NCBI GenBank assembly: GCA_951406725.2
Contig: OX597838.1
Location: 16,802,001 to 16,866,000, forward strand
DNA length: 64,000 nt
Direction of reading: 5' to 3'
Origin: Octopus vulgaris
Taxonomy: Eukaryota
This document shows, piece after piece, positions 29,601 through 32,600 of this stretch. A program made the position numbers and the translations under genes. The notes beneath the pieces are model-generated. The model was given only the letters and a program-made list of their open reading frames with translations. It was not told the DNA's origin and did not search any database. The first letter of the stretch is position 1. Every line of letters starts with the position of its first letter.

Positions 29601-32600
29601 CTGACTCTGTAGTACAAATGTCTTGTTTTCATAAGTTTTGAATTAAAATCTTCCACCAAACCTTAGTCACAATTCATGTTCCTAACACTAGCTGAATGAC
29701 AACTAAGTTATTTTACTAAATTCCTTGTTATATTTAACCCTTTTGATACCAACCTGGCTGACACTGCCTCTGGCTCTGTAGTATAAATGTCTTGTTTTCA
29801 TAAGTTTTGAATTAAAATCTTCCACTGAACCTTTGTCACAATTTGTGTTCCTAACACTAGCTTAATGACAACTAAGTTATTTTACTAAATTCCTTGTTAT
29901 ATTTAACCCTTTTGATACCAATCTGGCTGAAACTGCCTCTGACTCTGTAGTACAAATGTCTTGTTTTCAAAAGTTTTGAATTAAAATCTTCCACCAAACC
30001 TTAGTCACAATTTATGTTCTTAACACTAGCTGAATGACAACTAAGTTATTTTACTAAATTCCTTGTTATATTTAACCCTTTTGATACCAACCTGGCTGAA
30101 ACTGCCTCTGGCTCTGTAGTACAAATGTCTTGTTTTCAAAAGTTTTGAATTAAAATCTTCCACCAAACCTTTGTCACAATTTATGTTCTTAACACTAGCT
30201 GAATGACAACTAAGTTATTTTACTAAATTCCTTGTTATATTTAACCCTTTTGATACCAACCTGGCTGAAACTGCCTCTGGCTCTGTAGTACAAATGTCTT
30301 GTTTTCAAAAGTTTTGAATTAAAATCTTCCACTAAACCTTAGTCACAATTTATGTTCCTAACACTAGCTGAATGATAACTAAGTTATTTTACTAAATTCC
30401 TTGTTATATTTAACCCTTTTGATAGCAACCCGGCTGAAACTGCCACTGGCTCTGTAGTACAAATGTCTTGTTTCCAAAAAGTTTTGAATTAAAATTTACT
30501 GCTAAACCTTAGTCACAATTTATGTTCTTAACACTAGCTTAATGATAACTAAGTTATTTTACTAAATTCTTTGTTATATTTAAAGTAATTGAAAGAAACA
30601 CAGAGCATCTCAAAATAAATACAGTAACAAAAGGGTTAACCCACTTTTAGCTCACTTCACAACCATGTGGTTTCAGGTTCAGTTCCACACATCTACTATA
30701 GCCCCAGGCCAACCAATGCCTTGTCAGTGACTTGGAAGGTGGAAATTTTGCTTATGTTTTTGTGTGTCTTTGTGCTTGTGTTTTCCCCCACACCACTGCT
30801 TGACAAGCAGTGTTGGTTTGTTTGTTTATAGGCCCATAATATGGTTGTTTGGCGGAAGGAAATGAACAGACTTGAAACATAAGTATTGGGGTTGATTTCT
30901 TCAGCTAAACCCTTCAAAGCAGTGCCCCACCATGGCTAGAGTCCAACGACTAAAACAAAATAAAATAGTTGCAGAATGATCACAAGATCAAATGCTGATC
31001 AAATGTGACGATTCAAATAAATGTAACAAGTAGAACTTTGGTGGTCAGAAAAGGAAAAACTTTGAAAAGCTTAACCCAAAAGAAGAACAAATTGTGGAAT
31101 TCCAGAACAGCTACTCATGAACAAACAGAAAAAAAGCAAAGAAAGGAGTGATTGTGTGGAAAGAAGTTTGCTTCCTAACCATGAGGTTCTGGGTTCAGTC
31201 CCACTATGTGGCACCTTGGGCAAGTTTCTTCTACTATAGTTGCGGGCCGACCAAAGCCATGTGAGTGGATTTGGTAGACAGAAACTGAAAGAAGCCCGTC
31301 GCATATATGTATATGTAAATAAGTGTGTGTGTTTGTGTTTGTGCCCCCCCTTCCCCCCGTCGCTTGACAACCGATGCTGGTGTGTTTACGTCCCCGTAAC
31401 TTAGCGGTTCGGCAAAAGAGACCGATAGAATAAGTACTAGGCTTACAAAGAATAAGTCCTGGGGTCGATTGGTTCGACTGAAAGGCGGTGCTCCAGCATG
31501 GCCGCAGTCAAATGACTGAAACAAGTAAAAGAGTAAAAGAGTAAAGAGAGTAATCTAAGCTGTGTTTCGTTTATACTTACTTCATCCTCTGGGCGCCAAG
31601 CTAATGGGTTACCTTTATATTCTTTGCCAGCTAAGCCGGCTCCAATGAATGCTGGAAGTTAAAGTTAAGGATTGTTACAATACTCTTGTGGGGTGGTCAG
31701 CATTTGGTTGCTGAACAAGTTCAATCAACTCCAGTTTTATAAGAAAGAAAATAAAACTTCAAGGAAAGAGAAACGATACACAAGGTATTCAAGACTAGGT
31801 TATTAAAATTACCATCTATAACCTCTTCAAAAAGCTAGATGGTAAAGGCTTTTGATACCGATAAACATTTAAACTGTCCATTAACACCCGTGGACATATT
31901 TACAAAGTAAGAAAACAGCACAGCTCCCATGACTTCAGGAAACAATTTTTTCACGCTGAGAGTTGCTGAAGCATGGAACAAACTGCCGGCATCAGTTGTT
32001 AGTTGTCGGAGCACTGCATCCTTCAGGGCTTCCATGCTTCCTGAGATTCACCGGCACTACGCTTGATTTTCTCCCCTCCATGCACACACGGACGTGTATC
32101 TGACTCGTGCATTGTTCGCTTTCCAGACATTTCTACATTGCTGCATGTACTTTATATGCACTTTCTGGCGGGTTGTGGTGCACCTGAGCACTGTATACAA
32201 TAATTTCATTCCATGCTAGCATGGAAAGCGGACGTTAAACGATGATGATGATGATGATATTATTATTATATGCAATAGAAGCAGTTTTAAACTAAAACAG
32301 CTACCTGTATGTTATATTTAATATAAATACATCGTTGAAAGGCAAATTACTGTGGTATTTGTCAAGAAATAGCATCTCTTATGGACATGCTGCTTTTATA
32401 TAATAATGAAATTATTGTATACAGTGCTCAGGTGCACCACAACTTGTCAAAAGTGCGTATAAAGCATATGCAGTAATGTACAAATGTCTGGGAAGTGAAC
32501 AGGTGTATGAGTCAGATACATGTTTGTGTGTATATGGAGGGGAAAAAATCAGGTGTAGTGCTGGCGAATCTCAGGAAGCATGGAAGTTTTGAAGGATGCA

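Follow-up and report, generated by a model that had tools for sequence, protein, structure and literature searches.

Runs of A-to-G changes are known from avian retroviruses (PMC12925331), where they are dense, affect the RNA strand of a reverse-transcribing element in one direction only and are recorded in DNA, much like the changes at the octopus locus analyzed here. As described in the available parts of that report, the avian viruses are exogenous and their changes lie in U3 and in an RNA inverted repeat, whereas the octopus element is a non-LTR retrotransposon, apparently fixed in the chromosome, with many independent cases and no internal hairpin found. APOBEC-edited LTR retrotransposons of vertebrates (Knisbacher and Levanon, PMC4866542; PMC2873906) likewise carry strand-specific clusters of a single transition in young copies, and the screen for them was designed much like ours, with the subfamily majority as the reference and the mirror change as the control (PMC4866542). 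Those fossils consist of G>A changes caused by cytidine deamination of the cDNA of vertebrate LTR elements (PMC4866542), whereas the octopus changes are A>G, occur in a LINE of an invertebrate and probably had RNA as their substrate. The same screen, in the parts of the paper available, detected no APOBEC-type editing of DNA in any of 19 invertebrate genomes (PMC4866542). The octopus copy lacks the APOBEC signature as well, with two G>A against 16 A>G changes in a non-LTR element.

The base change, the repeat targets and the animal group are all shared with the hyper-editing of repeat RNA in coleoids, including octopus (PMC5625713, PMC9068888), and the octopus hyper-editing rate is among the two highest given (PMC5625713). 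Coleoid hyper-editing is read as RNA against an unedited genome and shows a strong depletion of G upstream of the edited site (PMC5625713), whereas the changes described below stand in assembled DNA and their G depletion is weak. A defense role of ADAR against cephalopod transposons has been suggested as unexplored (PMC9068888). In humans, the restriction of LINE-1 by ADAR1 (PMC5224506) likewise brings an ADAR together with a LINE ribonucleoprotein. That restriction is editing-independent, and the available parts of the study describe no edits in over 2.5 kb of L1 RNA, which counts against the explanation we favor. Our search of the open-access literature, supplements excepted, turned up no report of LINE copies that carry ADAR edits and have become fixed in a genome.

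A young LINE copy in a DRAM intron

The window, a 64,000-nucleotide stretch of Octopus vulgaris contig OX597838.1, contains the following features around the focal LINE copy (positions are counted from the first letter of the window; A>G positions are referred to as edits for brevity).

31882..32210, plus strand: young, 5'-truncated copy of an APE-endonuclease/reverse-transcriptase LINE (CR1-type), comprising the end of ORF2 and a short 3' UTR; aligned to sister copies over 328 columns, with the ORF2 C-terminus in frame
31882..32025, plus strand: upstream half of the focal copy, unedited; 0/44 As changed, one extra A near 31945
32026..32171, plus strand: A>G tract of the focal copy; G at 16/39 As, two G>A, no indel
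32172..32210, plus strand: 3'-terminal LINE segment, without edits in all ten A>G-rich copies
32211..32258, plus strand: 3' end from another short repeat family, tailed by (GAT)n; ten window copies aligned, without A>G excess
32259..32269, plus strand: (ATT)n run of the type that terminates LINE copies, from the sequence and the tails of sister copies
32400..32830, minus strand: inverted copy of the same LINE, of an older subfamily, 195 bp from the focal copy; no one-way cluster
34028..34249, minus strand: frame with a DRAM/Frag1 exon upstream of the host intron (PF10277, E = 1e-9)
26443..26667, minus strand: frame with a DRAM/Frag1 exon downstream of the host intron (PF10277 positions 175-219, E = 3e-4, below the curated cut-off)

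The focal copy shows the features of a target-primed non-LTR insertion, namely 5' truncation, an intact 3' end, a simple-repeat tail and a family ORF2 with endonuclease and reverse transcriptase. The long sister copy L175 encodes both domains (Exo_endo_phos and RVT_1) in a frame of 862 aa. The domain evidence on the family comprises only such endonuclease and reverse transcriptase domains and jockey-family look-alikes; we provisionally take the element to be CR1 from its C-terminal motif and short-repeat (ATT)n tail, with L2 or Crack as alternatives. The foreign repeat end of about 48 bp (32211-32258) between the LINE end and the (ATT)n run represents either a nested insertion or a template switch. 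Once its A>G changes are set aside, the focal copy differs by less than 1% from the subfamily majority and is therefore young. The inverted neighbor carries 27 changes (4 A>G, 4 T>C, 5 G>A, 8 C>T and 6 transversions). Because it has the letters of an older subfamily and more private changes, it was probably inserted before the focal copy, in which case a hairpin between the two cannot have edited the RNA that produced the focal copy.

The host DRAM gene lies on the minus strand, with exon-holding frames at 52488-52661, 38894-39157, 34028-34249 and 26443-26667. The focal copy is thus intronic and, as a first-pass annotation made from the DNA letters had stated, opposite in strand to its host. 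Editing of the DRAM pre-mRNA predicts T>C on the plus strand, of which the focal copy has none. Editing of a plus-strand host pre-mRNA was likewise unsupported, since no plus-strand host gene was present in the 131 frames scanned (129 of the 235 listed non-repeat frames and two others), which gave retroelement pieces and weak matches only.

The DRAM intron that holds the focal copy also holds a long tandem array (26694-30583, period of about 169 bp), and two further arrays lie at 8593-10043 (about 183 bp) and 19161-19991 (about 166 bp). Matches to DUF7083 and aspartyl protease at 41415-42380 (plus) and 24190-24369 (minus) are probably remnants of a gypsy-type LTR element, and a frame at 63062-63400 (minus) with a C2H2/SUZ12-like zinc-finger match (E = 2e-6) is probably an exon of a neighboring gene.

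The A>G cluster of the focal copy

We compared the focal copy with the majority letters of 29 sister loci, which were selected by the upstream half only. Relative to this reference, the assembly has G for A at 16 positions: 32026, 32027, 32028, 32053, 32054, 32061, 32082, 32090, 32091, 32094, 32107, 32109, 32140, 32168, 32170 and 32171. Two G>A changes (32050, 32092) are the only other substitutions; all of them fall within 32026-32171, and there is no deletion. The first-pass annotation had reported a dense A>G cluster from a comparison with two older copies, whereas ours was made with the young-subfamily majority. The cluster itself held in the assembly and 15 of its sites were recovered, but 32147 is a young-subfamily letter rather than an edit, 32054, where the inverted neighbor likewise has G, had been missed, and the four additional differences counted were mostly subfamily letters.

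Overall, G stands at 16 of the 93 As of the focal copy. In 65 unselected copy alignments, which served as the background, A>G changes affected 42 of 7,214 A sites and T>C changes 26 of 7,095 T sites; the excess in the focal copy has p = 8e-12 at three times the background rate. The changes are indeed absent from the upstream half, where none of the 44 As was edited as opposed to 16 of 49 downstream (p = 9e-6, with the boundary chosen after the fact).

The pattern of Gs is not shared by an ordinary subfamily. The best match to the tract at another locus reached 92% identity among the 40 of 1,031 candidates that were scored. Near the 3' end, a plain 27-mer occurs at least 2,403 times, compared with three occurrences, the focal copy included, of the form with GG at 32170-71; GG at 32053-54 occurs once in the genome. 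Three of the 16 Gs (32027, 32091 and 32140) coincide with sub-lineage markers, two of which are carried by 201 and 59 copies. Since the other markers of the 59-copy lineage are absent from the focal copy, its Gs at the three marker sites look like repeated hits.

Sister copies and sequence context

To find similar copies, we used degenerate motif searches with one forced A>G or one forced T>C, and fetched the candidates with 9.5 kb of context. At least three Gs were present in the motif in 10/45 and 3/59 forced-A>G matches of two anchored searches, whereas no forced-T>C match had three or more Cs in the three mirror searches (0/3, 0/9 and 0/3; 0/15 in all). Doublets near the 3' end numbered three for A>G and zero for T>C. 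The family-wide test that the annotation had proposed was thus positive, yielding nine further independent clusters on the LINE sense strand with no T>C counterpart. All ten clusters, the focal one included, are A>G on the sense strand, and the nine sisters lie seven on the minus and two on the plus contig strand. Their A>G patterns differ from one another, and none of the nine has an inverted partner in its 9.5-kb locus (within about 4.5 kb). The share of A>G among all substitutions of each sister is given below, followed by the share after removal of lineage markers.

L150: 42/51; 40/44
L145: 21/29; 17/21
L148: 15/16; 11/12
L159: 12/17; 10/11
L165: 9/10; 5/6
L163: 9/12; 4/6
L147: 7/10; 5/5
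L161: 6/7; 5/6
L160: 6/12; 4/8

Three copies were excluded from the pooled counts as weak or of an old lineage, namely L146 (8/18 A>G), L166 (4/7) and L162 (2/2, 78 bp). Across 198 copy alignments (duplicates included), the highest non-lineage T>C count was 9, reached by an old copy whose changes of every kind total 31, and the next was 3. The nine sisters were found through G-containing queries, and their number is therefore biased and gives no frequency estimate; ten A>G-rich copies in at least 2,403 subfamily copies set a lower bound of about 0.4%. A random 200 kb of the genome contained only three copies longer than 250 bp, too few for a frequency. The strongest copy of the family is L150:4563-5039 (G000:C9 near 38.53 Mb), with its 42 A>G changes spread over 477 bp and no inverted partner, which makes it a better test case than the focal copy.

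Some A>G changes in the family are inherited markers. The 59-versus-3 asymmetry between A>G and T>C at 32139-40 was discarded as independent evidence, as it reflects mostly one sub-lineage: all 12 single-G matches fetched for this site have G at three common marker sites. This sub-lineage (L173-L184, some 55 copies) has in common A>G at three sites together with G>A and T>C markers, and it includes long copies with open ORF2 (L175, 862 aa; L176, 666 aa). Separately, L171:4640-5041 and L172:4503-5050 have six A>G changes in common, three of which are found in L170:4523-4839. These are separate insertions with different ends, and the lineage on which their common A>G changes are nested has further A>G markers; small lineages of this kind may descend from edited templates.

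Other structures were seen near or within family copies. In the LINE copy L156:4255-5796, about six internal duplications of 126 bp each form a tandem array. Long inverted repeats whose arms (528, 226 and 260 bp) are 100% identical occupy L148:224-811 and L165:1157-1416, a few kb away from the A>G-rich copies of these two loci; they are non-LINE by the tests run, and are either real fold-backs or assembly features.

We next pooled the nine sister copies (93 edited and 192 unedited As; sites recur between copies and are not independent) and sorted the As by their neighbors. By 5' neighbor, the edited share was 26/41 for T (0.63), 24/54 for A (0.44), 13/54 for G (0.24) and 30/136 for C (0.22), so that T or A compared with G or C gave an odds ratio of 3.8 (p = 6e-7). 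ADARs favor 5' neighbors in the order U>A>C>G, and the pooled preference for T or A appears ADAR-like. The depletion of 5' G was not significant (G versus the rest, p = 0.15 pooled), and 5' C was equally disfavored. The annotation had drawn on the single 5' G among 16 edits in the focal copy; the count is correct, but with lineage-marker sites excluded, 1/6 As with a 5' G were edited versus 12/28 others (p = 0.37), and the argument therefore carries little weight. On the 3' side, G had the highest edited share (17/34, 0.50; p = 0.03). The concordance of edited sites between the focal copy and other copies was not significant (p = 0.28, or 0.05 with lineage sites kept).

None of the ten A>G-rich copies has an edit in its last 41 bases (0/109 As), in contrast to 56/310 As directly upstream; because edits cluster within copies, the formal p of 1e-8 is overstated. 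A targeted doublet search in this terminal segment returned one A>G and one T>C case. The A>G case, L169, has two A>G changes there. Its element (L169:4369-4710) also has an inverted duplicate of 87 bp, at 14 bp from the 5' end, and the two arms have two A>G changes in common. The edit-free end fits a segment that the reverse transcriptase protects or needs. Folding of the element on itself revealed no significant duplex, either in the 434-nt 3' region (z = -1.65) or in the last 57 nt (z = +0.32).

Origin of the clusters

Taken together, the focal copy likely derives from ADAR-edited LINE RNA that underwent reverse transcription in the germ line, to which we assign a probability of roughly 0.7. 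This explanation builds on the one-way cluster in the assembly, its sense polarity, the nine differing sister copies, the preference for 5' T or A and the edit-free last 41 bases. It is also the reading of the annotation, which had proposed that an edited LINE transcript was reverse-transcribed and integrated; the A>G clusters across the family and the lack of a subfamily with this G pattern, which the annotation had named as a refutation, support it, with ADAR as the enzyme suggested by sequence context and the Gs as assembly letters.

An assembly or basecalling error tied to the inverted pair would explain the Gs of the focal copy and leave the other A>G-rich copies possibly real, and we consider it unlikely. 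In nanopore reads, accuracy falls once the second arm of an inverted duplicate is reached (PMC7229812), the focal copy is the sole one of the ten with a close inverted partner, and its Gs come from the assembly. However, the miscalls described in that paper come with skipped bases, whereas the tract has no indel and contains only A>G and two G>A, and the partner arm carries no cluster. The unedited copies L038, L053, L090, L125 and L132 also have same-family inverted partners within about 1.2 kb, so that a single such case among the ten is not remarkable. The 1.01 Mb of fetched DNA contained 27 other inverted pairs with gaps of up to 500 bp, with counts of 49/48/44/44 in the four classes of transition mismatch, and 31 pairs with longer gaps, with counts of 102/86/98/114, compared with 19/3/5/4 for the focal pair. 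The absence of an A/G bias in close pairs weakens the nanopore explanation. The annotation's caveat on miscalled inverted arms was therefore right about the close partner, at a gap of 195 bp, but has lost force through these unbiased pairs and the nine partnerless sisters.

We also looked for the Gs in contig sets. X2 contains the GGG of 32026-28 within an exact piece of 34 letters (depth 83.5), and X2 and X3 contain exact pieces with the GG of 32170-71 (depth 105-192.5). Alleles of the family with several Gs thus exist outside the assembly, and the source of these pieces can be copies other than the focal locus. The X1 set, of which about 80% was scanned, matches the flanks at 31526-31910 (one other letter, depth 51), 32274-32422 and 32805-32900 (no other letter in either), and its left-flank contig enters the LINE by 29 letters, the threshold for a bridge being 31. 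At 100% identity, X1 does not cover 32016-32103 or 32216-32232, its exact pieces being at most 35 letters long, and X3, X2 and X6 do not cover 32056-32103. X1 contains 0.69 of 81 sampled words, which fits the loss of all words private to the focal copy (p = 0.90 with 30% missing; p = 8e-5 with 14% missing). Contig simplification would be expected to remove private paths within a repeat that is tens of thousands of times deeper. We set this loss aside as evidence against the Gs, since contigs drop rare variants and show presence rather than absence, but it remains a warning. The raw-read runs X21 and X22, sampled at 3%, provided 5 and 49 reads, none over the A>G tract.

Equally improbable, in our view, is that the clusters are real and arose during retrotransposition without ADAR, through bursts of misincorporation by the reverse transcriptase or through another adenosine deaminase or modification. 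Skewed dNTP pools that lead to the placing of C opposite A, or slippage beside a G, would also produce A>G on the sense strand only. The rise in rate before a 3' G is what slippage would give, and the non-significant depletion of 5' G and the lack of a duplex in the folded 3' region can be read in the same way. The strong preference for 5' T or A and the many TAC edits without a 3' G fit ADAR better. Moreover, a polymerase burst should begin at the 3' end, yet this end is edit-free, and the A-to-G runs of avian retroviruses at an inverted repeat were attributed to ADAR (PMC12925331).

Still less likely is that the focal copy was inserted unedited and was changed later in place, by gene conversion from edited cDNA, by repair templated by a hairpin RNA of the locus itself, or by ADAR editing of the DNA strand in an R-loop formed with antisense host pre-mRNA. 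The sharp upstream boundary of the tract would suit such a route, the locus has an inverted partner of its own, the host gene uses the plus strand as its template, and in model substrates ADARs are able to edit the DNA of DNA:RNA hybrids at mismatched positions (PMC12925331). Changes in place should fall on either LINE strand, yet all ten clusters lie on the sense strand; partial tracts also occur in the partnerless copies L159 and L147, and the partner arm is unedited. Finally, an ordinary G-rich subfamily or chance point mutation is very improbable and largely refuted by the best tract match, the departure from background, the rarity of both GG forms and the missing markers of the 59-copy lineage, with the three marker-site Gs on its side.

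Under ADAR editing of the LINE RNA, part of the 3' region of a source element's transcript would pair with antisense LINE RNA, supplied either by a read-through transcript that includes an inverted copy or by intronic copies read in antisense. We infer an antisense partner because the element hardly folds on itself. ADAR would then deaminate 10-40% of the As in the duplex to inosine. The ORF2 protein would bind the intact 3' end and prime reverse transcription at the target, reading inosine as G, and the insertion would take place in the germ line. The lack of edits at the 3' end would reflect either protection by the reverse transcriptase or selection for recognition by it.

More tentatively, and at somewhat less than even odds, we propose for the family at large that octopus germ-line ADAR routinely edits the RNA of an active LINE. 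At least 0.4% of young-subfamily insertions would then carry edits in heritable DNA, with the last 40 or so nucleotides exempt owing to reverse transcriptase recognition, and edited templates would sometimes found daughter lineages, as in L171 and L172 with their six A>G changes and L170 with three. On this broader view, RNA editing would act as a mutational force in LINE evolution, and the edited copies would form a dated record of editing in the germ line.

The focal copy, with its 16 sites, is a small example, and its value lies in the family comparison. ADAR action on germ-line transposons of cephalopods, the idea raised earlier (PMC9068888), becomes testable, and from the edit-free 3' end one can predict how long a signal the reverse transcriptase of this LINE needs. 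If true, the favored explanation would mean that RNA edits can pass directly into inherited DNA by way of a LINE, in the animal group with the most extensive editing.
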